A stretch of 63,703 nt of DNA, filler included, from Rhabdomonas costata (lineage: Eukaryota), in NCBI GenBank assembly GCA_019059605.1. It is 30 parts of 30 records of this genome, joined end to end, with 100 filler letters (N's around TTAATTAATTAA, not from the genome) between each part and the next. Parts side by side here need not be neighbours in the genome. Positions count along the whole stretch, not along the records: positions 6,381 to 8,406 come from JAHMHO010006302.1; 29 more parts are not named here. One strand, written 5' to 3'. Both the position numbers and the translations under genes were made by a program. Shown piece after piece: positions 4,837-62,532 of the stretch. The number at the start of each line of letters is the position of its first letter. Within the stretch, counting starts at the first letter, position 1. The notes beneath the pieces were generated by a model. That model was given only the letters and a program-made list of their open reading frames with translations, was not told the DNA's origin and did not search any database.

Positions 4837-6383
4837 TCACTCCTGGAAGCCCTTCCGGTTCATTTCAGACACGAAAATGGGAAGAGAGCTTTTCAAAAAC
4901 GGCTGCACACCACAAAAAAAAAGCAGGTAGTACCAACTCTGTAATGCACAGTGGGAGGGAGGGAGGGGTTCAGGCTGGGCTACTCACGGGTACGCGTGAG
5001 TGGAGTTACTCCTACATTGACACTTCAAGCACAACGGCCAAACAGTTCTGTTCTGTATAACAAACGAATTGCAATTAAGAAGGATGTTGCCATTGTGAAC
5101 TTCTTGAAGAAAGGCTTTGCGTGTCCCGCTGGAAAGGCTATTCCAGAAAATTGTGTGATGAAGCCCGCGAGCAGCGTAACTCTCAATCGTGCAAGGATTC
5201 TCTCTCCTCACCATAACATCTGATCCGTACAAGAAAGACAAACACCGAAGGTAACAGCGTCTTTTCTGCGTCCCATTTTGTGTGCTCCCTTGCTCCGCTC
5301 CAGCAGAGCCTATATGGCCAGCCAAAGTGCAGCCCAACAATCCCTCGGCAGTGAAAGGAAAGTGCCAGAGTTTTCGCCGAGACAGGCGGTTTGGGCAATC
5401 ACCCGGGGCCAACCCTGGGGATGTTGTGGTGCTCTGTGTTGCAAAAAAAAATACCGCAAGAGATGATAGAGAGAGAAAACGCATCAGAAGACAGAATGGA
5501 CTCTAGGATGAAAACAAAGAAGGTATTCCTCACCGCACCAGAAAGCAAGTGGGTTTCGGTGTGTTAGCTCTCGCTTGCATTTCAGTTAATAATGATTCCA
5601 AGGGAAACGACAGGGAGCACCTATCAGCACATTGATTCAGTCCTTACCGCGGAGGAAAGACCACGGGAAAATCAAAGCAAAACAAGGGGGGAGAATCGTC
5701 CAAAGGAGCTCAGGCACAATTTTTCAAAAGTCGACGAACGCTTGGCATGGGCAAGGTGCCAGGTGAGGAAGACCGGTTTCACGATTGATATAGCCGATGT
5801 ATCAAGGGGAAACACTGGCGACTCCGGAAATCTCCACAGACCTCCGCAGCGCAAAGAACACAACGACCGATGAGCTGAGGAACTAAATACGAGCACAGTA
5901 CACAAGCTCGCATGAATGAGCACGCGAAAAAACATCCACTAACTCTTTGAACTCATCCCTGCCACGTTATCACGTCAATGATGGCCCAGTGTCGTCTATG
6001 TGACCGCCAGGTAGACCTCTTCCAATACTTTCTCGGCCACCCTTTTGGGCGGAATTGCCAACTCATCCAACTCACGTCTATTCATGCCGAAATCCTGCAA
6101 ACGTTGCCCACGTACCAGTCATCGTGGACAGTTTGGCGTTGAGCTCATCGATGCTGTCCCGATAGGTCTTCGAGGCAACCTTCTTGTACCTCTCCGCGGC
6201 CTGCGACACCGCAGACGCGAAACTTGAGCTAAACGCTTAACCGGTATACCCCAACTGAAAACGCAGCGAGAACCAAAACCNNNNNNNNNNNNNNNNNNNN
6301 NNNNNNNNNNNNNNNNNNNNNNNNTTAATTAATTAANNNNNNNNNNNNNNNNNNNNNNNNNNNNNNNNNNNNNNNNNNNNTGG

Positions 6384-6646
6384 GTGTTTTACTTAATGCT
6401 AATATACGTTGATTTAGTATTTTAACTGTTATTTTATTACCATAATTTACATATGTCGCATCAAGATTAATTGTATATAACTGATTATCATTTAATTGCG
6501 ATATTAAATCTTTGATATTATTATCTAAATTTTGTTCATTTAATAAATTACGATTTGTGATCATTTTAACAATATTTGTAAGTACGTAATATCTTACGTT
6601 TTGTTTCATTATTAATTTCAACTGGTTCAAAAAGTTTCTGTTCCAT
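6384..6646 (-). pseudogene. Giant-virus-type RNA polymerase subunit RPB5-like N-terminus, frameshifted
   Basis: MEQKLFEPVEINNETKRKI, then a frame change near 6585 into VLTNIVKMITNRNLLNEQNLDNNIKDLISQ...KITVKILNQRI. It resembles the Mimiviridae RPB5 N-terminus as I recall it, and the start context is AAAATG. Confidence 0.55.
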
Positions 6647-6763
6647 TTTATATTTATTTGTTTTATTATATTTATTTGTTTTTTATATTATTTATTTTAT
6701 ATGTTACTATATTTACTATATATAGTAAGTATATAGTAAGTAGTATATACTACTACTATATAT

Positions 6764-6822
6764 TACTACTACTACTACTACTACTACTATATATTTTATA
6801 TATAGGGTTAGGGTTAGGGTTA
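6764..6822 (+). repeat. (TAC)n microsatellite followed by telomeric (GGGTTA)3 at 6805-6822
   Basis: Sequence reads ...TACTACTACTACTATATATTTTATATATAGGGTTAGGGTTAGGGTTA. Confidence 0.9.
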
Positions 6823-7046
6823 TGCCATTTAGTCATTAGATTATCATTTACATCTTCACTATTTTTATGTCTAAAGTATGATTTTCGTTTTGGACCATCT
6901 GCACATATTAATTCATGACCATGATTGCATAGTATATTTATTTTTTGATTTATATTCTTATAATTTTTGATATATTCTGTAATATGAATGATTTCATTAT
7001 TTATATATGCATACTGAGATTCAAAATTTTTATTGCATTTCTTCAT
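6822..7046 (-). pseudogene. Truncated NCLDV CoiA-like family gene (N-terminal part)
   Basis: LCNHGHELICADGPKRKSYFRHKNSEDV...MTKWH resembles the C-x2-GHEL...YFRH...MTxWH N-terminus of CoiA-like giant-virus proteins. The frame then runs into telomere repeats (NPNPNP) and microsatellite. Confidence 0.55.
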
Positions 7047-7128
7047 TTTTTATCTATCATAAAAAATAGTGTTCGTCTTTATACTTTTATATTTATGTTA
7101 TATTATTAAATAATGATACATAAAATTT

Positions 7129-7592
7129 TTAAAAAGTAAAAAGAAGAGAACCTAAACCATTAACGATTTGTAATACATTGTAATTTAATACATAAATTCG
7201 AACATCAAATAAGGATGAATTGGAAACCAGTGAATTAAAATTAATATTTAATGTATTCTTTTGTTATTTGCCCATATTTGAACATCCACTTGGTTGCATC
7301 TCTTCTGGATATAATGAAAATGAATATACATTTATACCTAATGTTGGTGTACTTGTATGAGATATATACGGCTGTACACAATTGTAATATAATGATGGCA
7401 AGTCAATAATACGATTATAACCATTGTAAAATAACGATGAACTTAATACTGGTTCTATTTCATTTGAAGATTATTGGAGCTCATTATTATGTGACATTTG
7501 TATATGAATTCATCATCATATAATTGTAATTGATCAATTAAATATTCATGTTTCGATTGCGCGAATTTTTTACGTTCCATACTATCTATATA
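7129..7592 (-). pseudogene. NCLDV major capsid protein (double jelly-roll) fragment with internal deletion, frameshift and premature stop
   Basis: Manual translation gives YIDSMERKKFAQSKHEYLIDQLQ (7592-7524). Another frame gives EPVLSSSLFYNGYNRIIDLPSLYYNCVQPYISHTSTPTLGINVYSFSLYPEEMQPSGCSNMGK*QKNTLNINF...RIYVLNYNVLQIVNGLGSLLFTF* (7455-7129), with in-frame TAA at 7264-7266. These match the MCP motifs ERRRFAQxxHEYLIEQLQ, VQPY..H...GINVYSF.L.PEE.QPSG and YNVLRI..G.GG. Confidence 0.92.
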
Positions 7593-7918
7593 TATAATTG
7601 AATAATTTTATTTAATTAGATGTTGTTTTGTATTAATATCAAGTATATTATTGTTAATATTTTCAAAAAAAAATAATGTTCATTTAAGGTTTATTTTTCT
7701 TTAATTCTAAATATTTTGATTTGTATTTTAAATATTAATTTTAGATCCTATTGTCGATAATATATCATTAATTTTACTTTCAACTTCTATTATTTTCTGC
7801 ACATTTTTATCAAATATATTTAATTTAAATGTTATAGTACCATGTCCATCAGGTGACATTGCTAGTGCAGTATGATCTACTAAATCTTTATATTGTTTGT
7901 ATAAATATATTAATTTAA

Positions 7919-8405
7919 TTATATTAATTTACAATCTTCTAATGTTGTATAATCAGACATTGATATACGTATGATTTTATTTGAATAACTGGGATTAATT
8001 TTCATAGATGCTAAAACATGTGACAAATCACCAGCATGACAGGCACTACCTACAGATACATAAATATTATATTCACTTAATCTTGCAACTAATGTTTTAT
8101 TACACATTTTAAGATCTTCAAATATGACAGCTATTGTATTATCCATAGAATTACGTTTATAAGGACCAACAATCAACACATTAAAATTATTTAATTCACG
8201 TAATAACCAAAATTTTAATTTACGAACTTTACTATTTGTTTTATCTCTGTCTATATGAACTTTCTCAAATGCTTTTGTTAATCCAGATATATACCCAACA
8301 TGGTGTTCCTGGACGTAATCCATTTTCTATCGAACTACCAATACGATCTGGATTATTCGATTCATAATGTTTAAAAATATTAAGAACACTTGGATGTTCA
8401 AATGA
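7919..8405 (-). pseudogene. NifS/IscS-like cysteine desulfurase, internally deleted and frameshifted
   Basis: SFEHPSVLN (8405-8379) is followed about 20 codons later by ENGLRPGT (8327-8304). After a frameshift near 8302 come VGYISGLTKAFE...IYVSVGSACHAG...SHVLASM...IIRISMSDYTT. The catalytic GSAC is present but the PLP-lysine segment is missing. Confidence 0.85.
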
Positions 8406-10912
8406 ANNNNNNNNNNNNNNNNNNNNNNNNNNNNNNNNNNNNNNNNNNNNTTAATTAATTAANNNNNNNNNNNNNNNNNNNNNNNNNNNNNNNNNNNNNN
8501 NNNNNNTTGTTGTGGGGGACGATGGTGACGCCGTTGTGCAGGTAGGCGCCGGGTGGAGGTGCAGGGCCGAGGATGGGAGGGGAAGGGCAAAGGCCCGTCA
8601 TTTTGGCGCAAAACAAGGCAAGACACAGGCCAGTGAGAAGGACGATGTAAAGGATATACTTTGACACACCGGCCTTTGAGATGTGGTGCAGCGGATGCAA
8701 TGATTGCATACTTCCTCTGGAAAGTCAGGGCAGCCTTAAGTTGTGGCAGATGCGATGATTACGTTAATTACCTTTTTGTGCAGAAACCATTACCTTGTGT
8801 GTTTACTTCGTTTATCTCTTTTGTCTTTGTTCCCGGGCTTTATATTCATACTGCCTGTTAACCATGAAACTCGATTGCCAACACCATTTGTGCTGTGATG
8901 TCAACCAAGGATGTCCTTACAGACAACCTTACACAGCCTTACAGATAGAGGTGAACACTTGTCACCAAGTGAGTTGCAGGGACCATTTGACAACGACCAC
9001 GAGGGAAACTGCACCCTGTAATAGGGTGGAAGACCCATTGGAACCACTAACATGTCTACTGCCTCAAACCGATCGGTGTGTGGAAACGTCGGTTGAAAAC
9101 CAACCACGAACAGCTTTTTGCAGCATTGCAACTTCGACGTCATCCCAACGCATCCTCCCACTTACAGAAAGGCACACCCTGATTTCGAGGGACACTGCAG
9201 CGTGCAGAGGAAAGATGGAAGAGAACTGACAATGAGCTCACGTTATACGCACACGTCACGAAGTCTATACCTACAATACACCGTGAAATTAGACACACTC
9301 GACATGACATATAAGCCATAACCTTAACTTGAAAAGTCCCCCGCGCGGTGCTGGCCATTCAGGTAGGAGACTAGGAGGGGCCATCCAAGCATGGCCAAGT
9401 ACAGGATTGCGAGGGGGTAGAATGCAGCCGCAAACACTGTGAAGGAAACAACTCAAAATGAACGCGAGAAAGGTCGGTAAACCAAGCTCTGCCTCCAAGG
9501 GTTATTAAGGCACCGGAACGCGAAACCCTTCCCGTGAAAACTGCTGTTCACACCCAGAAACCATTCAATCACAACAAAGGACGGTGAGTCACACACTATC
9601 ACACACTATCCAAAACGCAGGCAAGAACAAGGGATAGGAAGATTGTCCTATACACGCCACCAAAAACATAGACCGCCGACTTATTGCAGTGGCTACTCGA
9701 CGCTGGGTATGGTGTGGTTGAGATGCAGGAAAGGCGTCGGTGTGGACGCGAAGCAGAGTACGTGCCCGTCATCCTGGGTGGGTGCTTGGCGGAGCAAAAA
9801 AACTATGGAAATTCGAGAGAATACGCAAAAAAGCACACCCAAGTGGGCCTGGGAAGACCGCCAGTGTGGAATCTAAGAAAAGAAAATGGATAGGAAGCGC
9901 CTCCCTATAAAAGAGGCCACCACACATGGAAGAGGGAGGAGTATGAGAAACAAAACTTGACCTGGTGCTTATTTCACAACATTGAATATGAGCAACAGTG
10001 CAACAGCACACGGATCAGAACTTGTGCCTGTCACACTGATTAAAAAAGCAAGGTCGAGAAAATCACTTTTTTCAAAAAAAAAAAAGGGATAGAGACGCCC
10101 CTGGGAAGATATGGATATGGATGATAGGATATGGGAACGATGATGCACTATCCATTGAATAACTCATCGGCACCGAGGGTACGTTGATTTCATCACCTTT
10201 CTCTTGCCAGGCGAGGGCGACTGAGGTGCCGCAGTCGAAGCATGCTGGATTCGACGAGCACCGTGGAGAAACTCCATCTCCAAGTCCCGGCGCTCGGAGT
10301 TCTCGAGTGTAACCACAAACCTTCGGGTAAATTCTCCCTCCACTGCCAGGTCCGCGAGAAGGGCCTCCAGAAGGCCTCCCTGAAAGAAGCCACGTCACCG
10401 GAAACACATCCGTACCCATTGACAACCTACGACGCGCTTCAGAGTTCACGGCATTCATTATTCTCATGCTACTCTCAGCCCGGTTCAATACGCAGGCGCA
10501 GATCAGATGCTTACCCCGGAACACCACCCACNNNNNNNNNNNNNNNNNNNNNNNNNNNNNNNNNNNNNNNNNNNNTTAATTAATTAANNNNNNNNNNNNN
10601 NNNNNNNNNNNNNNNNNNNNNNNNNNNNNNNAGGGTGGAGAAGAAGAGAGTGGGCCTCTGCTCCTTCTCCCCCCAGATTTAAAGGACTTTGGAATGCGTC
10701 CTTTGTAGGGGGCGGGGGTGAAAACTGTGCGTTGTTGTACCCCTTTTTCAGTATGCGCGTTCATGCTTGTTTTTCATTTTGCGGGCTTCCCATCCGGTTC
10801 ATGTCACAACACATACACTGTAATGCTCGCGTCGTGCTCTGTTTATTTCCATTGTTGACTCACTAGTATGTTTGCGCGTTTGTGATTTGCTTGCTTGTCA
10901 GTATTTGTGAAA

Positions 10913-27713: not shown

Positions 27714-29732
27714 GTGGGAACTACGCCTGCGTTTGACACCCTGCCTGCGGACGTTTGCGATGGCAAGCGGTGGAAGGACTGGTGCGAGTCGGAGAAGCCA
27801 GAGGAGGAGAAGATGCCCATGGAATGGAAGAACCTGAGCCCGCTGCCCAAGCTGCTTGTTTTGCGCTGCCTGGTGTGTTTCGATTCTCGATCCTTCGCTT
27901 CTTGTTCTCCTTTTAGGGTAGGAGCTCAAACAGGACAAATAGAAATGCGTCCAATTGAGATACGGCGCCGAGCATACGAACATTTTCATGGTGCTCTAAC
28001 CGCCACTTGACTATGTGCCGTTATTGCGGTTGCCACATACGATGGGCCGGGTTCCAGTATATTTTTGTTGATGTTACGACGTTCAGGGTTTTCATGTTTT
28101 TATCATCCGCGTCGATTTGCAGAGGCCAGATCGGTTGACTGCGGCTCTTGAGAGCTTTATTTCGGCCAACATGGGATCGAAGTACATCAAGGACCAGGCC
28201 GTCGACTTGACGGTCTCCTTCCAGGACAGCAGCCCCACAACCCCTGTTTTTTTCATTCTCTCGCCTGGGGTAAACCCGCTTCTTGACACTGAAGCCCTTG
28301 GACGCAAGCTTGGTTACACTGAGGACGCTGGGCTCTTCCACTACGTCTCCCTTGGGCAAGGACAGGAGCCCGTCGCCGAAAAGGCCCTGGAAGCGTGCTT
28401 CCAGCGTGGAGGTTGGGTCTTCCTTTCAAACATCCATCTCACCCGCAAGTGGCTCCCCATGCTTGAGAAGATTCTGGACATGTACTCCGAAGGTTTTAAT
28501 CGCCAGGCACTCGCGGCTCGGCGCAGGCTCGAGGAGCGCCGCAGACGCACTCTTAGCCGCTCTTCCCCTCGACCTCAAGTTGCCGAACCACCTGCAATCG
28601 AATCCGGCCCTCCGGCAGATCCTGCATCGGCCCCAACACGAGAGACAACCCCTTCAGCTGAAGCGCCGCAGCTGGAGCCGCAACCACAGCCGCCCCAGTC
28701 GCAGCCAGAGTCGCAGCCCGCAGCTCCCGAAGCGCCAAGCGCGGAGCTGCCTGTTTCCAAGCAAGACGAGGAAGTCGAAGAGGAGGTCGAAGAAGAGGTC
28801 TTGGTGGGCGGGATTCGTGGAAACAAGAACTTCCGGGTCTTCCTCTCCGCCGAACCTTCTGAGAAGATCCCGGCGGTATGGTGCGGTTTTATTAAGGTGG
28901 TGCATCTTTTGGACAAAATTTTTCTTTGCCCTTGTACCAATTGGTTGTTGCCCCCTGTACGTATCGGGCGATGTGCTAGTTCAACCTAGTTCAACCTAAG
29001 TCCAGCCTTTGACATGTATATATATTCCTGGTATAATTCATGGATCCCATGTTTCAGTGTGGGTTTGATTCGTTTGCGATGATGCTTCAGTCGAAATTGC
29101 CCTTCTCAGGGTATCTTACAACGTTCGATCAAATTGACGAACGAGCCTCCTCGGGGGCTCCAGGCGAACATGAAGCGCGCTCTGGCATGCTTTGGTGAGG
29201 AAACGTGGGAGGCCTCGTCCAAGCAAGCGGAGCTTAAGTCGATTATTTTTTCCCTGTGCTACTTTCACTCAACCATCGTGGAGAGAAAGAAGTTTGGGCC
29301 GCAGGGTTGGAACCGGAATTACCCCTTCAATCTCGGCGACCTGACGACTTGCATTGCGGTTTTGAATAACTACCTTGAGGACAGGCCAAAAATTCCATGG
29401 GATGACCTGCGCTACGTCTTCGGTGAGATTATCTATGGCGGCCACATTACTGACGACTGGGACCGCAAGCTCTGCATGACATATCTGGAGAACTTTATCA
29501 GAGCCGAGGTTGTCGACGGGATTGAGCTGTGCCCTGGCCTAGCCGTACCTGGTGCTATGTCTCACAAGGGCTACCTGGAGCTAGTGGAGCGCGAGTTTCC
29601 CTTGGAGTCACCCATACTCTACGGACTACACCACAACGCGGAGATCGGTTTCCGCACAACGCAGGGGGATCAACTCTTCCGGACTATTAATGAACTCCAG
29701 CCCCGGCAGGCAGCCACCGGATCAACCAGTGG
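27714..29732 (+). CDS. Axonemal dynein heavy chain (outer-arm beta-like), AAA6/C-terminal region; exons about 27714-27872, 28123-28875, 29110-29732
   Basis: LRCL|RPDRL, FFILSPGVNP, VSLGQGQE, GGWVFLSNIHL, FRVFLSAEP, SIKLTNEPP, CYFH..ERKKFGPQGWNR.YPFN.GDL, PWDDLRY.FGEI.YGGHITDDWDR and LYGLH.NAEI. Confidence 0.97.
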
Positions 29733-42986: not shown

Positions 42987-44694
42987 GTGGCAATTTGTGT
43001 GTTTATACGGTGTATGGGTCTATTGTGTTGTGTTTTGTCTTCTCTATAATTTTTTGTGGTCAGATTAATGGTTTTTGATGGCGGTAATTCATCCTATCTG
43101 GAGAAGTGTAACTCTTAAAGCACCTTAATTACACTACGAGGCCACAAGGCTACGAGACCTGCATTTAGAAAGTAGTAATCAGATATCCGCAATGTCACGC
43201 AATTAGTGACGGTGGAGAAACGGTGACTAGGATCACGATTGCAGAAGTGAGGCAATCATGATACAACCACATCATGCGGCTATGTCCAACCAGCATCCAG
43301 ATAGGTCCATACATCACATAGCAGGCATCCACGGTAACAGTATCAGTTGTTTCACTGGAAGGAAAGTCATGCACATGTGCTACACAACGTACAGGAAGTG
43401 TGTGCCATGACAAAACAACCATAGCGTGTGTGTGTGTGAAATGACAGCATTGACCAACACGTATCCAACAATGACGATTCGTTGAGACACACTACTGTCC
43501 AAAACCTGGCAGAACGTGACCGCTATAATGCACTTATCGAACCCACTGAGTGTATATGGCCATGGCGTGTTATACCACATTTAATTATGTGATATGTATC
43601 CCAAACTGATCAACTGTAGCTGTTGAGACTGCTAGCTTGGTGGTTTCGCGCATTACGACAACAATAATAAGAGATTACTGTAAGCAATACAGTGGTCAAC
43701 GCTTACCACCAGAACTACTAATATTCGAGTAGAAAGCAAACGGTGGTCCCATAAATCAAACACTAAGAAATAGACTCCCCAAAAGTTCTACGAAAGGCGC
43801 TTGGCAAACAAATTAACCACGAAACTGGATAGGAAGAAGTTGGGGAAACCAATCTGTGGGCAAACGGTCCGAAGGCACAGAGAAGAGCATAAAAAAGGGC
43901 GCGTGGCGCTGTCAAAAAGTGGTTGAAGCCGCAAGTCTCGCCCCAGGGCGCGGACGGAGAGAAAAATCAAAGCCCATAGCGGCAACGCACGTGGAAAACA
44001 CAACGGAAGCAAGAAATACGTTGAACAGAAACACAGAAACGCTTGGCTCGCTTTGGTGGTCTGTCTGAACCCGACGGCTGGCGCTGGAACTTGGGATCGC
44101 ACAGGGCGCCCGCCAGGATTGGAAAGACCCCTGGTGACGTAGCGCCGGGCTGTTCCCAGTGTGGCGGCGTGGGTGTGTTCAAAGCTGGCGGGCCCATGGA
44201 GGAAGGATGCGCACAGGCCGTGGAAGGATAGATGCCGAAGGCCTCCGGCTCGCCGTCTTCGGTAGAATTTCGCTCGTGGATCCGCAGGCAGTGCCTTCGA
44301 CACCCCAGCGTCCAGGTCGGCGGCCATGCGCCTTCCAGATGTCCTTTTTGCGAACGAAATGGCCTTAGGGTGAATTGCGCCACTTCCTTCGCCAAAACGG
44401 TAATGCTCCATCCCGCTTCGGCTTCCCCCGCAGATACCGCTTATCCTTTTGCTTTCGGGCCGAATCCGTAGGACCCGGGGCCGCGTAAGTCCGCGAACAG
44501 ACCAAGCTTGGGGGTTCCGCCCCACACGAAAACGAATGGAAGACTAAACGCAAAAAAAATATCTGTTAACAACACGCCCAACACACCCACCACANNNNNN
44601 NNNNNNNNNNNNNNNNNNNNNNNNNNNNNNNNNNNNNNTTAATTAATTAANNNNNNNNNNNNNNNNNNNNNNNNNNNNNNNNNNNNNNNNNNNN

Positions 44695-45785
44695 GAGAGG
44701 GTATTGGCCAACGTACCCATTCGGGTCATCATACGGTCCACGGAGACATCCTCGAAAAGATCGTCCACAAGCCGGGCCGTGACCTGTGCTGCATTGAGCT
44801 GATGGTCTTTCGTGGTGCGCAGGTTGACAGTGTAGCCGACCTGCTCCACCATGGCCGAGAGCATGAATGTCGAGGAGCGCTGATTAGAGAGCTAAACAAG
44901 GCACAGGGTCGAAGCGCATTAAAGAGTCGATGACGATGTGCTTGAAAGATAGAGAAGAATGCAGTGGCAGGAGTCTCTTATTGAGAGTATGTCACTATGC
45001 TCAGAAGAACAGCTCAGCTTCACATTCGAGCAATGCAACAAGCATTCTTAACTTCACTTCACTGATGGCATGATTCCTTACCGCAGCTCTTGTGCTCGTA
45101 TTCCTTACCGCGGCGCGTGTGCGTGTACGCGTGTGTACCCGGTATCACTGGTATCCAAGTTCAACTGCATACAATAAAGCGGTGAATGATTCTCCAGTGG
45201 TTTGGACGGGATTCGAGGGAAATGCTCCGTCCTTGTGATTCAAGCAGATGATTCGCAGGGGGTAAGATTGCAATGACTGAACCCTTGGATTAAGTGGAAG
45301 CTAGATGGGGTCAGAGGGCTGAAAATGGTTCCAATGATATAAGCAGATGATGTCCTGGACCGCTTCGGTGCGCCCCATGGCTCAAGATACCAAGGTAGTT
45401 TAACGCTCCGCTTCATATTACTTTGCTTAAACACACAAATACACACTCCCCTTACGGGGGCACATCAACAACATTAAAACAAGCCCCTGTGCCACCGCAC
45501 GTTCTTTCTATACTTGTTCTTTTGTCTTTATTTTAAGAGCGCGTCCGGAAAGCCAGACTTCTCAGAAGTCTGAGAACTCAGACAAACCACTCTTTGGTGG
45601 GCTTGCACGACAGCAAAAGAGTCCATCGCGTGGTGCACCAGGACCAGCTCATGCTGGAGCTGATCTTGCTTCATGGTCATCGTGCTGCTCCAATTGAGCA
45701 CAATCGCTGTGGCTGCCACGGCCATTGCCATGATGAGGGACATAATCACCACGCTAATCACCAACTTTGTGGTGGGCTTCATTCG
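44695..45785 (-). CDS. N-terminal exons of a membrane-anchored protein, possibly a receptor-type cyclase or kinase
   Basis: MKPTTKLVISVVIMSLIMAMAVAATAIVLNW transmembrane segment, and a second GC-rich exon at about 44695-44880. Confidence 0.35.
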
Positions 45786-48700
45786 GTTTTCGTAAACCTG
45801 TCCCCCATTGAAACCCCAAAGCACTTTTATGTTCGCAAACTCCTGCGGAATATGTTTCCTTGCGAGGCAGATTTCCAAAGTATTCAATTGAAAGTTGAAA
45901 TTAATATTATACCATATTTAATAATAAAAATGGGAATCGGACCGCTGCACGAACACCGCGTAAGCAGCGGATCTCGAGGGAGAGTAGGAATTTACAGGAA
46001 AGGACACGCGCACTGGGACCCACCTGGTCCCAGTGCGTGTGCACTCCCTCTTGGAATATATAGTTGATTCGCATGGTATTCATGTTGTTGTTTTTGTGTG
46101 TCTCCCAGCCCAGCTCAGACCCCCCTTCCAAGGACACAAAGCACTTGCAGCAAAAAAGGGGCACCGTTCCGATATTCGAAATAACACAGAAACCGAAGAA
46201 AACAACGAATTGGTCTGCACCAGGACATCAATCACAGGAGAGTGGCTGCAACTGGGTCAATCCATCTTGGACGTATGATCTAAATGTAATTAAGGTGAGA
46301 CCTTGAAGCTTGGGGTAATGCGCACCATCTTAGAGTTATTCCAATCAGCACCTTAGCTGCCCCCCCCCAAAAAAAGTGGGAACGCAAGGCACAGGACACA
46401 AATGGCTCACAGCACAGCCCAATCTCTTCTCCACCCCCCATAATGATCCCCACAACAATTACAATACGCGGCGGCTTCACGCAAATTCAAGAAAAGGAAT
46501 TGCTCTTTCCCTTGGTGCGCCTGCCTACCCGTGCTACACATACCTCCTCCCCATTGCGACGGTGGCGAATCGCTGCCCACAGCGCTGAGGCCTTGAGGTG
46601 AACCCAATGAAGTGCTCTGGCAATGGGTCCCACTGAACGCCCCTGAGTGACCTTTGGCCGGCCCTGTTCAGCGCACGCACAAGGGAAAGGTAGTGAAAGC
46701 GGCGTAAAGCAAAACACCNNNNNNNNNNNNNNNNNNNNNNNNNNNNNNNNNNNNNNNNNNNNTTAATTAATTAANNNNNNNNNNNNNNNNNNNNNNNNNN
46801 NNNNNNNNNNNNNNNNNNTTTGTTTTGTAGAAGATTCTGTAAAAAACGTTGTGCAATAAAGGCATGTGTGTGTGCACAAAAAGCATGGTATTGTTTACGA
46901 CAATTCATTGGATTAATTTTTTGGTTAAAATCCGTTTTGTGGTTATGGGAGTTTTGATCTATCAAAAGGTGGTTTTCAATTAGATTCCTTTGGTTTTGGT
47001 CTAATGCGGTAGCAAACTTCAAAACAAGCCGGTAAGGTCATGTGACCGAATGTCCGCTGGTGGTAAGCGGTACCAAGGAAATTAAAAGACAAGTGATGTC
47101 GTGCAGCAGTGAAATACCATAGCAATGGTCAATGGAAAATGTCCACAAAGATCAATTGTGCAAAAGGAAATTTCGTTAGGGGTTGCGGGTGAAAGTGTGT
47201 GTTGTTTGGAGTTGTATTCACGGTCAAGTGGTAAAACTTGGCCTGTGGAGATTAATCTTTTTGTCAGTTTCTGAGAACCGTTACACGCAGCCCCTCGTCA
47301 GCAAGATCTTGGCAAAATGCTACGTCAGGTCACATAGCACAGTGGTGACAGTGGATTGGACAGAGATTGATGGCCAAGAGACAGATGGCTATAGAGTGAC
47401 ATTGTGGGAAGACCACGGGATCAATGCCACATGGAATGGAAGTGCGTGCACACGACCAAACTTCAGTGGTTTATGTGTACGTTTTCGAAGTTTTTCAGAG
47501 AAAGAATGATGCATCAACACACACCCCGCCAAAAACGGCCGCGGGAACTACTTCTAAACGACCTCAGAAGAGTGTTCTACCCACAGCTGTCGACACCGTT
47601 GAAATTTCAGTCACCGCAGCCACTTTATTGCCGCCGACTGAATATCTCCCGACATATAACAAGACACACTGTGTCATACACCAAATATTATAGAGAACAA
47701 TGTGAACTTTTTGCGACCCCAGAAAGTCTGGCCGCATTGTTGGCGCCCTTTTTGACTCTGGTTGCAGCAACAGCGTGATACTGGACACACTGGTAACATT
47801 GCTTCACATTGCCGTCCACAAAATCACTCCATAAGTTTACGTGCACAGTGACCTGTGCTTCAGATCTCCATTCCTCGTTTCGGAGTTTGAGCGCGATGGC
47901 ATTTTTGGCCATCAAATTCCCGAGTTCCATTCACAGCAATTCATAAACAGATTCATCCACCTTCTTGTGTCATACTCCACACAACTTTCATTCCCAATTC
48001 CCCCTGACGAAATTTTATTTTGGCCAAATGACCATTTGGCCATTCCCCCTTGATTATTGCTACCGTATACTCCCGGGGCCAGCGGGAGTTTAAACAGAAT
48101 TGCCACCAGGGTTGAAATGCAGATATAGCGGAAGTGTCTTTCTTTCCCAATTCACCCCGGCCCAAAGTAAAACCGCCCAACCGGTGCCCATGATCACCCA
48201 TCTTTTTTGACACGTCTGGGTTGGGAAACATGCGCGATTCCAGAAAGGTTTCGTTTGCTGGACGTTTCTTGTTCGCCAGGCGCTGGCCCCAATATTTCAA
48301 TGCACTTTGCCTTGAATGCAATCCTTTTTCTCCGATAAAAGTTATGTTGCGCCGTGTGGCATTGATTGAATCAATATTGGGTTGTTAATCTTCTTGCGTT
48401 TCCCCAAGAAGGTGCTTCGTTCCACCGCAAAGGTCCTGAATGGTCGGACCGTGGAGCAAACTAAACGATCACGACCTGCAACCGCTTTGCGGTTTTGCTT
48501 CTGATTTATGTCAGACGGCACGGCGGCTCTTTCCCGGCGTAGCCCACTCGATCCGATCCACTCCGTGGTCCCTCCAGACAAAGCTTTCGCTTTGTGAGCG
48601 CTTTCAAATCACCTAGATGAGGAGACTTCTTTCCCCCGGGTTGGCCTCGCTTTCGCCAAGGGCCAGGTAGACCATGGTCGCAACCACTCCTCGCAGCTGA

Positions 48701-50147
48701 CCAATCCTGTGGACTCTTGGTCGACTACTCTAGGTCGCAACCTGCCACTCCGTCACACCCTCTCGGTCGCTTCTCAAACTCCTTCAAATGGGACTTAACC
48801 ACCTTCGTTCCGCAAACCCCCTTAATTCGACAAACCCCCACANNNNNNNNNNNNNNNNNNNNNNNNNNNNNNNNNNNNNNNNNNNNTTAATTAATTAANN
48901 NNNNNNNNNNNNNNNNNNNNNNNNNNNNNNNNNNNNNNNNNNGGGGGGTGTGGGACAAGCGGTCGGCCGGTGGCAAAGCGCTGGGCTTAGTCCGTCCCCC
49001 CCTCTTTCCGCGGTGATAGGGAAGTCAAAAAGATGAAAGACCGGCCACGCAGCGTTTCGGGAGGCCTGGTGTATGTACAAAAGACCCCAGGCCTGCTTCG
49101 GCTTAGCCCTCTTTTCTCATTGACCGTGTCATAGCAAAAGACGATGATGTTTAATATTGTCTTTTGTTTTTGACTTAGTTGATTATGTTCACTGTCGTCT
49201 TTTTCCTGGCAACCCAAATAGGACACTCTCCATATAACTTCAATAAAATGTTGACATCATCAGTCAACCACCTTGACATTATCAGGGCATCAAGAAAAAT
49301 CATCGCATCCAAGAGGGAGGAACTCAGGTTGGAGGACAACAAATCAGGCACAAAAAGGGAGCAGGACTGGAGAGCAGGTTCTAGGAGCGCGAAGGGAACA
49401 GTGCGGGAGGCATAAACCAGCTTGCAAGCAAGAGCGGGGAATGAGATGGCATTTCTGTGGGCAGTCGAGAAGCTGCAGATTCTCTGCAAAGCGCTCAAAG
49501 TCACCAAATTTGACTCGGGACCCGCATGCGAGCCAAGCACTCTCCTTCCACAGGTAAGCGGAATAGGCGCGAACTTGTGGAGTAAAGAGTTGGGCGGGAG
49601 GCGGGACACATCACCCCACAACTGTCTTCGAAAAGTTGGGCTCAAGCCCGAACTCTCAAAAGAAGGGCAAGAGAGAATTGAGTGCATGAGAAAGCTGCTC
49701 GGGTGTACCGGCAAGCGTGCCGCTGGCAAGGAACCAAACCCCCATTCTTCAAGGCGGTGGGCAAACTCAACAATGGAAAGCGTTCCCACAGCGAAAAGAG
49801 CCCGACCCAAGGGGTCTCCCCCCACCATAAACGGCCGGAGGAACTACAGCGAAAACGAAAAGAAGAAGAAGAAGACTGCGGTTTCGAAATCGCCTTAACG
49901 GACGAAGCAACCCTTTCCCCTTTCCCCAGGGACTTTTTCTGTTGTTTTCGTTCGCAATGCATGCAGCCGAGACTCCTTTGCTTCCTTTCCGTCTCTGGGC
50001 TCAAGTTGAACTGTTGTGCAAAGGTTTCATTGCTCGCGTGTCTTGGTTCTGTTTTTGTTCTGTCGCTCTTTTGTTCGGGACGCCACATTCTTTGCGTCTG
50101 TTGTGTGATTGCGCGCTTGCCTGCTTCCCCTGTTCAGGGTTTTGAGA

Positions 50148-50240
50148 ATGGACTGTGTCAGTAACACAAACTACTATGAGCTACTTGGGGTCTCTCGACA
50201 TGCCTCTTTGGGAGAGATACGACATGCCTACAAGCAGAAG
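50148..50240 (+). CDS. J-domain (DnaJ) protein, first exon
   Basis: MDCVSNTNYYELLGVSRHASLGEIRHAYKQK followed by a GT donor. Confidence 0.85.
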
Positions 50241-53200
50241 GTGGCATTATTGTGTCGATCATGTTTGCTTGTTTGTTGTTGCTCGCTCAGTGCTGGGCAG
50301 GAGTTTGGTGAGGGGTGGGTTATAGGCATTTCGTTCCGTTCTCCTGTCTTCTCAGTGTTTTGTTTCCCAAGATATGCAGCAAAAACTGATCTTTTTATAC
50401 AAGTTTTTCAAGAAGGAAAGTGAGACAGCTCTGCGTGAGATACTCAGTTGTTGTGCCTTTTCTCTCTCTCTCTCTCTCTCTCTTTGAAACAAGAATAGCA
50501 CATAAAAAATACTTAAAACAGCGATCCGTGCAAAGATAACATAAAGCTCGGCGAAGGCAATGGGGGAAATGGGAGGTACCAAAGCAGGTAAAAGGTGGGT
50601 CGGGACATGGGTTCAGTAGGAAACAAGGGAGTTTAGTTCGAGAGAGACCTAAGGAGGAACCTAGCGCCCCCTGGGAAAGCGATGAACCACGGACAAGACA
50701 AAAAACACGAACAAGACACCTAACTAAACTTCAATTGACACAACACCAAGTGCACCCTCAGGGAAGAGGAGGGGGGGGGCATCACTCCTGAATGAGGGGA
50801 ACGAACCGCCGAAGCAAGTGTTTGGGCCACCGCCTGACTCGCTAAAACAAAGCGTGAGATCCCCAAAAGGGTCCTGAGGGCCGATGACAGGCTGGAGGTT
50901 GTGGGAGAGAGGCAGCTCAAGGCTTCAATTTTTTCTGCAGGCTTTGGAGCTACACCCAGACAAGAACNNNNNNNNNNNNNNNNNNNNNNNNNNNNNNNNN
51001 NNNNNNNNNNNTTAATTAATTAANNNNNNNNNNNNNNNNNNNNNNNNNNNNNNNNNNNNNNNNNNNNTGTGGGGTGTCTGAAATAAACACTTTTCAGCAA
51101 TTCCTCTACAATACATGGCTTCTGTGAAATGGACATCAAGTTTTCATGGGCAAAGTGTTTGATAAATTTGTGAGCCTTTAGATTGCAAAACTTGCCTCTC
51201 TGAAAGCTAGGAATACATAAACAGCTTAATACAAACACTCGTCAACGGCACAGTGGTCCACATTATCCTCTACATTGAAACGCGAATTCCACACACGCTG
51301 TCACAAGTGACATGGGTTTGTTGTATACACGACAAACCTGAATGGATACAACAGGCTGCTGTAGAATCCGGAGACAACGCAACTGGATGCTTCACTTTTA
51401 CGGTGTGGCGCACCACTGTATGTGGATTGTCCGGAAATTATACCAAATCAAAATATTTGCTCAGCAGTTAAGCCTCCTCTGGATTACCCTTGACCATTAA
51501 ATTATCTGGATTCATTGTAATCACAGCCGACTTCCATCTCTGCAACGCCTGCTCAAACGTCAAATTTACTGGACTGCGTATCAACTGGTGTGCATTATTC
51601 TCTGCATATCAACAACTATGAGCCACATTGTTATGCACTCTGGACGGCCATCAAAATTGTGTCAGTACAGGTCATGTTTTGCACTGCTCATGTGGTGAAC
51701 TTTGTACACGGCAAAGCAAACGTTGTTTCCATCTGGAACTCTGTAAACCCACGGCAACCACACTGCACAAAGTGGCCTCTTTCACCTCTAGTATAGTGTT
51801 GGATTTAGAATGCTGCGATTATTTTGTGTAGGTGCGTGCGCGCCAATTTTAGGCGGAAGCCTAGGGGTGTTCGTACTACCACATGTTTGTATTAGAAAGC
51901 CATACAATGGAGTTGGTATGGACAACACGGGCAACCGAGCTGGAGTTACCAAAAGATCAGGAGCAGCGCTTAACACTTTTAGAAGATCATTCGCTGTGAG
52001 CTGCCCGGAGTTTTTGAAAACAAAGGACCGTGAAGGCGAGGGCATTTTAAAGGATGAAGATGCTCCTGGCGATGGGTTTCGGTTGGCTGCAATTACGAGC
52101 AGCTCTGAATAACCGCTTCAAGGCGGGACACCGGACAAAGATGGAAGTCCCGAAGAAATGGTGGGTCAGCCAATTCAAGTCGGCGGGAATAAACTGCAGC
52201 AGGGCGCGGGGAAGGATCCCAACAGATATTTGCAAAACCACATCCGGTTATGAGGCAGTGACAGTGGTCTGGCGTTCAGGCCCAAAAAATAGGCGCTTTT
52301 TGATGAACCAGACGCGTGCGGGCGTCCTTTTTAGAATTCCTTCCGCCCTTTTGTATGTTCGTTCTGCGGCAAGTTTGTGTTACGGACTCCGGTCCGCACA
52401 AGTATCCGCGGGCTGGTCAGCACGGTCCCGTCCTATCCGCCGGGTGGCACCGCGGCGCGGCGGCCGAAGGAAAGCAGGAGTCAAGAAGAGATACTCGCCC
52501 CGGCGTTGCCGCACCGGCCGGGTCTTTGGAACCGGACCAGCCACCCAAGAAAAGCCAGACATAAGACCGGCCATCTCTGATTTACGGTTCGCCAAAACCC
52601 CCGCGCAGGACGATTTGGTGCTTTTGTGCTCCGGCTATGCCCTTGCCCAAAATCCTCTGCCGTGGTGTGCCGTTCTCCGGAAGTCCCCGAACATCTCGAC
52701 AAGACTTGGCTCCTAAGACTAGTTCGGTGGTTTGGGCCCATTTCTCAGCCACAAAAAAAACCAGAAAACTTGCGGACAAGCAGGGCAAAAAGCAGCAAGA
52801 CAATAATAATAACAACAATAAGGGGCGGCAAGCTTCCAAGCACCAGGGACGAGGGGGGAACGGCACAAGGAGCACACACTCACGGGACACAGGACTGAAG
52901 AAACGGAAGCGGAGGCGCGTGGGGGACACGTGCTCGAAGGTTTTTGCGAAGATGCCTGGACCAAGGTGGCCGTGAGTCCACATAGCAACCCAGGAAAACG
53001 CGTTTCCTGTCGGAAAAAGTCCGGCGAACCGGTTTACTCCTACCGGGGTCCAAAATTCTCTGAAAAATACTCCACATGGGCAAAACCACANNNNNNNNNN
53101 NNNNNNNNNNNNNNNNNNNNNNNNNNNNNNNNNNTTAATTAATTAANNNNNNNNNNNNNNNNNNNNNNNNNNNNNNNNNNNNNNNNNNNNCTGCGGTTTC

Positions 53201-55628
53201 CTCGGTTGATGACATCTCAATGGTCTTTCGTACAAGTGTCATGCGTGATTCAACGTCACCCATAGGCTGCAAGTGAACGCCCCCGTGAAGACAAGCCCCA
53301 CCAGGACAACACTTACCCAGATGGGAACGGTGCGGGACATGAGACCGAAAGGCACACAAAAAACACTGATTAATACTCAGCTAAAAGAACCAACAAAGGA
53401 AAACGTAAGCAAATGTGTGAGCAAAGGGAACAACCAAAAACCGCTGTCTGCATGGTTCCGCTGCGCGAGTGCAAACCAGAAACAAAGCATTCACATTTTG
53501 GAGGCAAGAAGGAAGGCCAGACCGGGACATCTGAAAGGCAGCAGGAGGTACCAAGGAGGTCTAAGCTGTGGTTAGTAGAAGCTCGGGCCTTGGGGGTAAC
53601 GCCAGGGAAACCGGCCTCGCGTGACGCTTTGTCACTTTGCTGTCGTCAGGTGCAGGTTTGCTTCACTGATGAAGTTCTCTTTTTTATTTCTTCTCGCTTC
53701 GCGTGCACGCGGGAGTGAGACATAGAGCAACCACCCAACGTTGCAAAAAAAAAACCCACCACGTTTTAGGCAATTACGAGGCAAATAGGGGGCGGTATGA
53801 GGCGGCATCTTTGCAACATTTTGTTGATAACCCTGCCCTTGTGCCTTCGTGAACACGAAGCTGGGAACCAGTGGAGCAGGTTACATACGCTTACAGGCCC
53901 CTTGGATGGAATTTCAACAGAGCGCAAAGCTCTGCACCGTCTTTTTTTGACTCAACAACAACAATTTGTTCCTGACGACAGACAATAAAATAAATGTTTG
54001 ACTCTCTGATGTCGGTGTGGGAACTAACACAATGCACTTTCCAGCTTTCCAGCTTTTACTGAGTTGCTATTACTGAGTGCAGTTTATTTTCCGTGTGGGC
54101 TAATGGTGCGGTTTTTGACAAGAAGCGAACGAAAACTCGGCTTTGGAGCTTTCTCAACTCACCGAAGGGAGGGAAGCTCTTGCGGGTGCTGGTTGTTTAA
54201 GGCGGTTGGCAGCTCCGGCTGAAGGACGCCGTGAAGTGTCTGAGGGTGCAATCATGGGGTCGGATAATAGAAGTGAACCATGTGTGACAGTTCCCGGCAC
54301 CTTCACGAGGTCGAGTAGCCAGTGGCCGGCTGCCACCGCTGTTAGAAAGGACGCCAGATATGGGACGCCTGATATCCTCGTTGTGCAACTGCTTCCGCCA
54401 GAGTTTCTCATTCCCCATGCGCCCTGGGCTCAAAGTGGACCCTCTCCTTGATGCTGCCCAAGGAGAAGCTCTTCATCCCACTCATCCAGGTTGTCACGAT
54501 CCACACGGGCGGGCCCAGGGTGCTGGAGGGGCTGCGTCAGTCGCTTGGATCTACCGTGGAGCGCTTCCGTGCCTCGTGGAAGGGCGGGTGGCGGAGAACT
54601 GTAACCTTTCCGGTCGAGCAGCTTGGCTTGGTGGCATTCCATCTCGCACGTGCCTTGAAGTCCGTCATGTGTCTTCTTTGGAAGAAACCGGGTTCCCGTC
54701 CGCGTCAACATGCACGACCGGTTTGTTTGGCAAGGTCGTTCCTTGGTGATCTCTCCACCTGCGGGAGAAGGCGCACGGGCGCCTCGTTGTTCACGCAGAC
54801 GCAGACGTCAAAGTACTTGCAATAGCAGGGGTCAGCACCAAAACAGCTTATACAAGAAGAAACGAAAGGAAACCAGCAATGCAGACTGAACAGAACTGCT
54901 GCGTGGGGTCACCGAAAAATTCACAAGAAGGAACGCGAGAAGAAATGAAACGGTAAACCAGAGCGAACGAAAAAAACAAACCAGGAGGCAGGGACGTGGC
55001 CTTCTCGAGCTCGGCCTGTGTTTGTGTGGTGGTGAGATAGACTCTGCAATTGAAAGATCATTTCCCGCCACAGTCCCACGACTTTTTTGTCTTCCAAAAA
55101 CTTCCTGCCTTTCCATCGCCAGGCTACTTCCATCTTTTCATCTACTTTTTCTCGCAAAAAGAAATTCGGCAAACATTGGCATTAAAACGCCATTAAAACA
55201 GCACTGAAGAGTTNNNNNNNNNNNNNNNNNNNNNNNNNNNNNNNNNNNNNNNNNNNNTTAATTAATTAANNNNNNNNNNNNNNNNNNNNNNNNNNNNNNN
55301 NNNNNNNNNNNNNTTAAGAAAACCCGAGACTCCTCTGCCTTATTTGGTTGCCTCAGTAGCCTTTCGTTTTGGACAGGTCAACACGATCTCATGGGAAACT
55401 ATACAGCATTGTGGCAATACACAAACGTGAGCTCGCGTTGGAGGTTGCTCTTTTATTTAGCTTGTTTTAATTTGTATCCCACCTATTCGCTGCAGCATCT
55501 GGTGCTCTGATTCTTTGTCTGCTTAGGTCGCCTTCGGCTTTTTTTACCAGCCCTGTGTTAACTGCTGCATCGAACGTGGGTTCGACCACAGTTCAGCTGT
55601 TCGTTTTCACGACCTGCAGCGGCTGCAG

Positions 55629-56233
55629 ATTTTTTAATGACCGCTTGCTAGAAGTTCAAGTGCCGTGGTTGAAGGAACAACTTCTGCATTCTAAAGCTGA
55701 GCACCGCTTTCTTGTCACTCATGAACCACTTTTTGGGCATAGTGCAGGCACGCAGCGGTCACGAAAGAGGCCGAACAAGGTTTTGGTTTCACAGACTGAC
55801 CAGTCTGTTACCGAGTTGTTCTCGGCGCTTGCGGAACAACACAATGTTGCGGTGTGTCCAACGACGCCAATTTCACTGTTGAACCTGGAGTTTTTTTCAC
55901 CACGACTTGTCTTCCTCATTTGAATTTCCCGCCTTGGAGGGGTTTTTCCGGTCGCAGGCTGTATTTTCGGGAGATGTGCACTTTTTGGAACTTCTGAAGT
56001 TCAATCGGACACTGCAAGTCATCTCGGGAGGGGGCGGCGGCATGGTTTTGGACCGACCTGCTCGGCGGCACCCACATTCCTTGTTTGTTGCTCGGAAGAC
56101 AGGCTTCACGTTCCATGAGCTGTACCCGTCTCCGCCGCACTTATTCACTTGGGTTGTTGACGGAAAAAATGGAAACGTTTTGTTCTTCAATGACCATCCT
56201 CTGAGCGTGGGACATCCAGTGATTTGTGAGTAG
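55629..56233 (+). CDS. Calcineurin-like metallophosphoesterase (purple/tartrate-resistant acid phosphatase-like), 3' part; exons 55629-55851, 55958-56233
   Basis: QVPWLKEQL..SKAEHRFLVTHEPLFG...HNVA|AVFSGDVHFLE...QVISGGGG...GF. Confidence 0.8.
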
Positions 56234-57439
56234 ACTTGCGCTGCTTTTAATTTCGAGGTCTTTGACCCATTGAGTTCAGCAATAATGTGGGCGCGGGAAT
56301 TTCGTAAAGAAACGTTTGATCGGCGGTTGACCCGCTCAGCGCATTTCCCAGTCCTATCCCTGTTTGGTGCCCAAGTTGCAGTAATTTTGGGATCGTTGCT
56401 CCTTGGGATGGGCACAATCCAAGAAAGTCACAGAGCCATCTATTTGGTGAACATTTGGGTTTGTGTGACAGTCTGTTGGGACCTTGTTGTTTGGTGAGAC
56501 AAAGCTTTTGCCGTTGCACTCTGTCACCGTTGTTGTGTGGTGCTTCCTCCTTCCTACTTCTTTTTCAGAATTTTACTGCCGAAACACTCTTTCAGTAATT
56601 GTTCACACCTTGTTCACACCTTGAATGCATGAAAAGCGAAGCGACATTAATTTACAGTAGCAGTAGTACTTTAAGGAGAAGGAGGGTTAGATGATGTTGA
56701 CTCTTGATGCTAGAGAGCATCAGTGTGCACTATGTTGTTCTGTTTATTTTCTGGCTTTTTGTGTTATTGGATCCAGCTGTGCTCCTTTCTGCTGCTTTGT
56801 CATTTGGAATAAATCTGCAAGTCGTAAACAAAAAGTTTGAAGTCCTATATGGAAAGCCATGCCAGGATTTCTGCGAAGTCGTGAGGGCTTTGAAGAGCTC
56901 TCAACTGGACCTTCTGGTATTACTCAGCCAAAATACCGCAGCAACGTTTTTGCGGGTTTGGAGAGGATTCCAACAAACAACAAGTACCTCTACCACCTGC
57001 GGCCCTGGGACTCCACTCCATCCGTGGTTTACGTGGATCATGTACACCGTCGTGATTGGTGGAAGCTGAACCCACCCACTATGACGGTTTGTCTGCTGTG
57101 GTTTTATTTCTTCTCGCGTTCCTTCTTGTAAATTACTTCGGTGACCCCACGGAGCACATGTAGTTGTCTGCAGTTTGCTGTGTAACGTTTGGAATGGCGA
57201 ACATGCTGTCTTATTCCGTTGCAGCGGGTGATGTTGTTTCTCGCCCTGGCGGTGCTGGTGCAGTTCGTGGTGTCGTTTCTTCCTCTCTTGGCAAATCTGC
57301 AGCTCCTTCAAATCCGGTACGTATTTCTTTTTCTTTNNNNNNNNNNNNNNNNNNNNNNNNNNNNNNNNNNNNNNNNNNNNTTAATTAATTAANNNNNNNN
57401 NNNNNNNNNNNNNNNNNNNNNNNNNNNNNNNNNNNNGTG

Positions 57440-59450: not shown

Positions 59451-60171
59451 AACCCCNNNNNNNNNNNNNNNNNNNNNNNNNNNNNNNNNNNNNNNNNNNN
59501 TTAATTAATTAANNNNNNNNNNNNNNNNNNNNNNNNNNNNNNNNNNNNNNNNNNNNGGTTGGTTGGGAACACCGCGCTTAGCCGGCAGCTGAGGTGGAAA
59601 TTTGTTGAGCAGTTCTAAATGAATCGTCCGATGACGGTTTGACAATGTAGTTACGGGGCATCGAGTCAAGCAAACAGGTCCGACCCGTCAATGTGTCAGT
59701 GTCAAATTACTTTTGGAAAAGGAGTTTGGGTATTTTAGTAGTAGTTTGGGTAAACTGTGCCCGGAATAATGCATCTGCCCCCTCACCGAAAATGCAGAAA
59801 AGGAGACAAGTGAAGCAAGTGGAGAGCACAAACGGACAGCCGGCTAAGCGCGGTGTTCCCAAGGACAGAAGACGAAGACAGAGGACAGAACAAAAGACCG
59901 GAAGGTGAGCGGCGCGGCCCCTACATTATGAGTACGCTCCCCCGAAAGGAGGTGCAAGCCACAACCGAACCTTCACACACCACCAACAGCCACGTAACCT
60001 ACGAACAACAGGGCCGCACCGCTCGACAGAAAAACAAAAACTTAGCAAGAAATGGAATGCAAAACGCTTCCAGCGACTGCACAACGGACAATGGCAGAGC
60101 ACAATGGTGGAACCGGCAAGGCAGGCACGACGGTGGAGGAAGAGGGAACAGCACGCCGCGTGGCGGCGGCG

Positions 60172-62337: not shown

Positions 62338-62478
62338 CTCTTTCTCTCTGTCTCCTTCTCCTTCTCTTTCTACTTCTCTTTCTCTTTATTTATTTATAAA
62401 TTTATAAATTCATTTATTTCCTTCCTTCCTTCCTTCCTTCCTTCTTTCTTTATTTCTTTATTTCTTTATTTCTTTATT

Positions 62479-62510
<32 letters not shown>

Positions 62511-62532
62511 TATTTCCTTCTTTCTTTCTTTT
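62338..62532 (+). repeat. Compound pyrimidine-rich microsatellite (TTTC/TTCC/TTTA)n
   Basis: Visible tandem units. Confidence 0.93.

Follow-up and report, generated by a model that had tools for sequence, protein, structure and literature searches.

What is a short run of telomere-type repeats doing at the very point where a viral gene breaks off? The question is raised by a single contig from the assembly of the eukaryote Rhabdomonas costata, for which an original prediction had placed a telomeric (GGGTTA)3 exactly at the breakpoint of a CoiA-like viral gene and had read it either as the scar left when telomerase helped to repair a break inside viral DNA or as subtelomeric integration. The contig lies in the window, that is, the whole stretch of 63,703 nucleotides that was analysed. 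This window was put together artificially from 30 unrelated contigs of 2,015-2,096 bp each, set in roughly falling size order and joined by linkers of the form N44-TTAATTAATTAA-N44 with stops in all six frames (e.g. 6281-6380 and 8407-8506); that two parts are adjacent in it has no biological meaning. Three features define the locus.

6381..8406, unstranded: stand-alone contig (piece 4) of 2,026 bp and 22.9 % GC, with a linker on each side
6803..6822, G-rich strand on +: telomere-type tract TA(GGGTTA)3 (Tandem Repeats Finder: period 6, 3.3 copies, 100 % matches)
6822..7046, - strand: CoiA-nuclease/SF1 (UvrD-like) helicase, first 75 residues from the native start (phmmer, tblastn)

The repeats themselves are readily confirmed. 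On the + strand the sequence runs ...TATATA GGGTTA GGGTTA GGGTTA TGCCATTTAGTCAT..., with the three GGGTTA units at 6805-6822 as had been predicted, and Tandem Repeats Finder extends the tract to 6803-6822, the TA at 6803-6804 being in register with the repeat. The tract is both the sole TTAGGG dimer and the sole perfect tandem repeat of a 6-nt unit with at least three copies in the 63.7-kb window, and a search of both strands of the contig (6381-8406) for further telomere-like 10-mers with at most one mismatch found none. The number of perfect 18-nt telomere-type tracts expected from the base composition of the contig is 1.4e-8, and the tract is far beyond chance. Its G-rich strand points, 5' to 3' on the + strand, from an AT-rich filler toward the CoiA fragment, as had also been claimed, and this is the polarity expected if the left piece had been extended by repeats at its 3' end. 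Unique, non-telomeric sequence lies on both sides, which is how short interstitial telomeric tracts (short ITSs) are flanked; with 1,584 bp of contig on its right, the tract is internal and constitutes neither a terminal telomere nor a healed chromosome end.

What the tract adjoins is the beginning of a large gene. The - strand ORF at 7046..6759 reads MKKCNKNF...NLMTKWH-NPNPNP-IYKIY-SSSSSSSS-NI*, so that past His75 NLMTKWH passes into NPNPNPIYKIYSSSSSSSSNI*, the formal frame crossing the tract and a (GTA)n repeat before its stop at 6756-6758. Searched with phmmer against 1.84 billion representative proteins, the ORF has 108 matches at E <= 1e-3 (best 3.9e-18, 64 % identity), and a word-based protein search with the same truncated ORF returned nothing. 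Every best stretch found by phmmer is the N-terminal part of the query, and the match ends at residue 78 or earlier in 103 of the 108 and at 80-86 in the other five. Full relatives are about 1,150 aa long (many matches are of 1,030-1,295 aa) and carry the domain at their N-terminus; the CoiA nuclease domain (PF06054) directly follows the matched part in all seven relatives scanned against Pfam, the longer of which also have AAA_19 or UvrD_C_2 helicase domains. Few of these proteins are named, names being available for two of the ten closest clusters of helicase relatives and for three of the ten closest clusters of the capsid protein described below, and they amount to 'competence CoiA-like predicted nuclease', a gene-call description, or 'hypothetical protein'.

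The point at which homology is lost can be fixed closely. The family has a Cys/His-rich N-terminal domain ending in ...FRHK...M(T/S)xWH, which is found in the ORF at 7046..6759, and C4, H44, F58, R59, H60, W74 and H75 are invariant in an alignment of 22 sequences, in which the window ORF has nothing to align past W74-H75. The ...xWH motif is present in 79 of the 108 matches; 77 of these continue for at least 10 residues past it, and 76 of the 77 go on with x-E/other-W/M/Y-Q/S/E into the core xEWQ(G/S)NFPxTE...RRAD...EFQHS. Neither the nuclease core (xEWQ...RRAD...EFQHS) nor the helicase is present here, and the Pfam family CoiA_nuc has no match in the window ORF. When six full-length or long relatives were placed on the contig by tblastn, the alignments ended at 6819-6822, and no credible match to the rest of the helicase gene was found elsewhere on the contig (6381-8406) with the low-complexity filter off, the leftover pieces being short, of low identity, at most 30 bits and mostly in low-complexity DNA (best E 2e-4). 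The end of homology and the end of the tblastn alignments together show that the gene is cut after codon 75 of about 1,150, to the base at the tract. The A at position 6822, with which the tract closes, also serves as the third position of the His75 codon (6824-6822; CAT on the - strand). The earlier reading of a frame that is virus-like up to MTKWH and then switches into the repeats, with one base shared at the junction, is thus borne out, as is the exact coincidence of tract and breakpoint. The ORF is a fragment and not a functional member of the CoiA-nuclease/SF1-helicase family. An intron or inserted element interrupting the helicase gene was considered and ruled out, there being no downstream remainder on the contig.

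Further, it is instructive to see what an intact gene looks like across the same point. A locus scan with a 6-sequence alignment returned a single locus, and the comparison at the DNA level is with this one relative.

44349-60874 of JBBAJS010000024.1 (60.9 kb), unstranded: locus L001 (1-16526), 29.8 % GC over 16.5 kb

This locus holds an intact ORF of 1,140 aa with CoiA_nuc and AAA_19, and across the breakpoint it reads ...ATGACTTTATGGCAT-ACTGAATGGCAA..., i.e. TGGCAT followed by ACTGAATGGCAA. Its 16.5 kb contain no TTAGGG dimer, and its neighbourhood consists of compact full-length ORFs with no telomeric repeat. In these related, non-orthologous genes the tract is not seen: NPNPNP occurs in 0 of the 108 proteins, and the tract is absent from the one DNA locus. 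The contig of this relative is binned in a MAG labelled Sediminibacterium, and of nine ORFs scanned seven lack a Pfam family; a giant-virus contig placed in the wrong bin is a possible explanation.

The DNA on the other side of the tract is of a different kind, a repeat-rich filler followed by an open frame that runs off the contig.

6610..6802, unstranded: AT-rich filler of 193 nt, mostly tandem repeats (Tandem Repeats Finder)
6648-6700, unstranded: tandem repeat in the filler, 18-nt unit, three copies
6719-6747, unstranded: tandem repeat in the filler, 11-nt unit, 2.5 copies
6748-6789, unstranded: tandem repeat in the filler, (TAC) in about 14 copies
6707-6727 and 6785-6805, unstranded: imperfect inverted repeat, 21 nt, 86 % complementary, abutting the tract
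6382..6609, - strand: putative ORF, 76 codons from ATG, running off the contig end

The filler, which had been described as TAC/TA-rich and about 150 bp long, is AT-rich and measures 193 nt (6610-6802). The inverted repeat flanks the (TAC)n array, and its end lies 2-3 nt inside the telomeric tract. For the RPB5-like gene whose start had been placed beyond the filler, none of the sequence or structure searches gave support, and the label is unverified. No RPB5 family appeared for the ORF at 6609..6382 at E <= 1 in Pfam or NCBIfam; RPB5 was likewise absent from its seven PDB sequence matches (E <= 10), the Atlas gave no usable match, the word-based protein search returned nothing, and Foldseek found 0 matches in the PDB at E <= 0.001 for a single-sequence AlphaFold model (pLDDT 55), although for an ORF of 76 residues the missing RPB5 match is weak negative evidence. 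The motif AAAATTGA, which we take to be the Mimiviridae-type early promoter, has no exact match on the contig (6381-8406); among three variants assumed alongside it, AAAAATGA alone matches, and it overlaps an ORF start codon.

To the right of the helicase fragment lie further gene pieces, which bear on the state of the viral DNA as a whole.

7132..7470, - strand: NCLDV major capsid protein, C-terminal end (Pfam Capsid_NCLDV, profile 79-195 of 196; E 1.2e-25)
7509..7595, - strand: second capsid piece in another frame (Capsid_NCLDV positions 1-26, E 1.7e-4)
7859-7728, - strand: small ORF of 43 codons, no match
7919..8405, - strand: NifS/IscS-type cysteine desulfurase, C-terminal part up to the native stop, running off the contig end (Pfam/NCBIfam/PDB)

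The capsid assignment is supported by PDB capsid proteins down to E 8.7e-13 and by 52 capsid relatives, and it provides the contig with a hallmark gene of the NCLDV. Over 29 aa, the piece at 7509..7595 is 58-62 % identical to P0131 and P0121. Profile positions 27-78 of Capsid_NCLDV are absent from the contig, and in tblastn comparison with full-length relatives the first 160-290 residues as well as an internal 38-252 residues have no counterpart, the size of the internal loss depending on the relative compared. Moreover, an in-frame TAA at 7264-7266 (- strand) falls in an aligned, conserved jelly-roll column of solved capsid proteins. A genetic code with TAA as a sense codon was ruled out: the NifS-like and capsid frames end natively at TAA, and TAA is therefore a genuine stop here. 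The pieces at 7132-7595 read as a pseudogene of the major capsid protein that has lost its N-terminal jelly roll. The NifS-like piece (Pfam E 3.3e-8; TIGR03402 E 2e-14; PDB 1ecx E 1.5e-8) has an open frame that shifts near 8303, where two open frames overlap; read with a NifS motif that we presume to hold for this family, the change resembles a frameshift of 1 nt. Taken alone, the 38-aa frame that lies upstream of the NifS-like ORF has no significant match.

The signs of decay on the contig accordingly comprise the helicase truncation, the capsid losses with their in-frame TAA, and the change of frame in the NifS-like piece. If coverage of the contig was low, sequencing errors could account for the frameshift and the capsid stop, and the argument for a decaying relic would then be weaker; the helicase truncation and the capsid deletions are not explicable in this way. 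All recognisable gene pieces are on the - strand and, apart from the pieces at either end, which run off the contig, all are visibly damaged, such that the contig, to judge from its sequence, is a mosaic of broken NCLDV genes only. That pieces of unrelated genes share one strand fits deletions in a co-linear viral segment better than random rejoining. The damaged neighbour genes suggest that the DNA is no longer under selection, i.e. that it is an endogenised relic. Overall, this giant-virus DNA is probably decaying and endogenised.

How far, then, can the contig be tied to the nucleus of its supposed host? It differs sharply from its companions, with 22.9 % GC against 43.5-56.6 % in the other 29 pieces and 12-33 % GC in each 60-nt window examined from 6381 to 7100, and blastn and tblastx against those pieces gave chance-level or low-complexity matches only. 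The other pieces look like eukaryotic nuclear DNA in their low coding density (longest open frames of 135-316 codons per 2 kb) and their CpG observed/expected ratios of 0.61-0.91, and one carries a recognisable gene.

28072-29730, + strand: dynein heavy chain domains, D6 P-loop and AAA lid 11 (piece 14; E 1.9e-28 and 1.3e-45)

The dynein heavy chain lies in two open stretches about 96 nt apart, which looks like a short intron, and a dynein gene with an apparent intron marks the neighbouring pieces as eukaryotic nuclear DNA. Elsewhere, TTCC/TTCT/TTTC microsatellites form a dense cluster at 62385-62530 in the eukaryote-like piece 30, and a scan of the whole window against Rfam returned 0 families. 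None of the other 29 pieces holds a telomere array, and the telomere motif of the host is hence not visible in the window. The viral contig (6381-8406) carries no host-like sequence and is not physically linked to any; having no host flank, it does not by itself demonstrate integration, and any statement about a host rests on co-occurrence in one assembly and on the tract. Of the tie to a TTAGGG host nucleus that had been proposed, the tract is the part that stands; neither host-like sequence on the contig nor an array in the other pieces is there to meet it.

Given these observations, a telomerase-assisted break-repair scar in viral DNA, or else subtelomeric integration, is the most economical reading. 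In its fuller form, to which we would give a probability of roughly 0.5, the tract is a short interstitial telomeric repair scar in non-functional Nucleocytoviricota DNA that most likely lies, or once lay, in the nucleus of a eukaryote with a TTAGGG-type telomerase. The order of events may have been as follows. Viral DNA would have been broken upstream of the left ORF, in AT-rich sequence, so that the + strand ended 3' in ...TATATA, with a second break inside the CoiA-nuclease/helicase gene just after the codon for His75. Telomerase would then have primed on the terminal TA and added GGGTTA three times, or, alternatively, a scrap of telomeric DNA would have been captured. End joining to the broken helicase gene would have followed through the shared A at 6822, and the sequence between the two breaks, including about 1,075 helicase codons, would have been lost.

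Short ITSs are described as insertions made during double-strand-break repair in vertebrate genomes (PMC2246262, PMC7215372, PMC8537989), and PMC7215372 gives as their features in-register nucleotides at the 3' side of the break, loss of flanking sequence and a shared nucleotide at the other junction. The tract shows the same set, with the TA at 6803-6804 in register, the A at 6822 shared and about 1,075 codons lost. Like the vertebrate cases, it consists of a few perfect TTAGGG units between unique sequences, with two in-register nucleotides and flanking loss, and it is absent from uninterrupted relatives. This match points to telomerase, or to capture of telomeric DNA, at a viral break followed by end joining, and a telomeric repair in turn points to a nucleus; the two nucleotides of register at 6803-6804 are by themselves weak evidence for break repair. 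It is unlike the vertebrate cases in that the broken DNA is derived from a giant virus and the comparison is with paralogous or related intact genes. With its 3.3 units it also falls short of the minimum of four repeats applied in PMC7215372.

Other systems resemble the locus in part. Chromosome healing would likewise give a primer-like TA end and a G strand oriented in this way to the left piece, but yields a long terminal array, whereas the tract here is internal and of 3.3 units. HHV-6 and avian alphaherpesviruses, mentioned in 10.1101/2025.04.19.649669, integrate at telomeres and carry telomeric repeat arrays, and thus also have host-type TTAGGG repeats inside viral DNA. In those herpesviruses, which are intact, long arrays at defined genome termini serve for integration; here a tract of only 20 nt disrupts a gene, and intact relatives do not have it. 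Closer in kind are the degraded, sub-telomeric giant-virus insertions of Acanthamoeba (PMC12210455), which often sit on small unplaced scaffolds with GC unlike the host. The reading of the contig as an endogenised relic would agree, by analogy, with that work, in which the association is regional and at chromosome scale; what is seen here is a gene breakpoint resolved to the base pair, without a host flank. Both components, the insertion of a few telomeric units where a break is repaired and the presence of giant-virus relics beside telomeric repeats, are therefore already known. Among the papers found on giant viruses and telomeric repeats, judged mainly by title and the opening of the abstract, none reports a telomeric tract at a giant-virus gene breakpoint resolved to the base pair.

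Among the explanations that compete with such a scar, the one that survives best, although it is unlikely, is an artefact of assembly or amplification, in which unrelated AT-rich viral-like sequences were joined via telomeric k-mers or in a chimeric product and no real molecule carries the junction. The assembly invites the suspicion, being very fragmented into tiny pieces on a scale of thousands, with 28 of the 30 contigs within 2,020-2,027 bp. Further, the 20-nt tract is about k-1 for a common k of 21, a size at which a short-read graph assembler could collapse a longer array or misjoin; the size of the tract would then be a lower bound. Viral insertions are also reported to be prone to mis-assembly (PMC12210455). 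Yet at the right junction the G strand runs inward into unique sequence, which is not the orientation of a terminal telomere, and at least that junction needs either a real interstitial event or a chimeric read. Chimeras from multiple-displacement amplification are mostly inverted, unlike the gene pieces here, all of which keep one strand. The other breakpoints on the contig, moreover, lie in ordinary sequence, so that the damage does not depend on the tract.

About as unlikely is that the scar is real but sits in a free, replicating giant virus, e.g. in a pseudogene-rich terminal region, with no endogenisation, the repeats having come from the host in a nuclear phase or via recombination with host DNA. 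The contig is indeed uniformly virus-like in composition with no host flank, and its relatives occur on metagenomic contigs of up to 104 kb for the helicase and 700 kb for the capsid protein and hence belong to genuine large viruses. Against this stands the density of the damage: three identifiable genes broken within 2 kb would be unusual for a replicating genome, the capsid protein is left as two out-of-frame C-terminal pieces with a nonsense codon, and the intact relative has compact full-length ORFs and no telomeric repeat. A microsatellite that arose by chance through slippage in the AT-rich spacer, with the gene truncation unrelated, is very improbable, for though other tandem repeats extend over 150 nt beside the tract in a slippage-prone region, the other repeat units there are G-poor, a unit with three Gs is expected at about 1e-3 from composition (an estimate), homology is lost exactly, to the base, at the tract, and no other perfect 6-nt repeat of at least three copies occurs in 63.7 kb.

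A bolder version of the repair scar would make telomere addition the route of capture itself, with host telomerase healing and stabilising broken giant-virus DNA in the nucleus, the fragments being joined afterwards to one another or to chromosome ends. Three large breakpoints can be placed on the contig, and telomeric repeats are found at one of them; the N-terminal break of the capsid gene (about 7600) and its internal break (7509-7464) lie in ordinary AT-rich sequence with no telomere-like motif. The suggestion that the tract reflects how this host fragments captured viral DNA therefore does not extend even to the other breaks on the contig, and one junction of three on one contig does not strongly support telomere addition as a route of capture, which we hold to be doubtful. 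Were it true, it would supply a mechanism for the sub-telomeric bias of the giant-virus insertions in Acanthamoeba, and the contig would be a base-pair-resolved footprint of capture.

Finally, it is worth stating what the repair scar would mean for the biology of these viruses and their hosts. Taken alone, a single 20-nt tract on a single contig of 2 kb serves chiefly as an illustration of two processes that are already on record. If the junction is present in real molecules, it would constitute a base-pair record of giant-virus DNA that was broken and repaired in a nucleus with TTAGGG telomeres, and it would offer a hint as to why endogenised giant-virus DNA gathers near chromosome ends.
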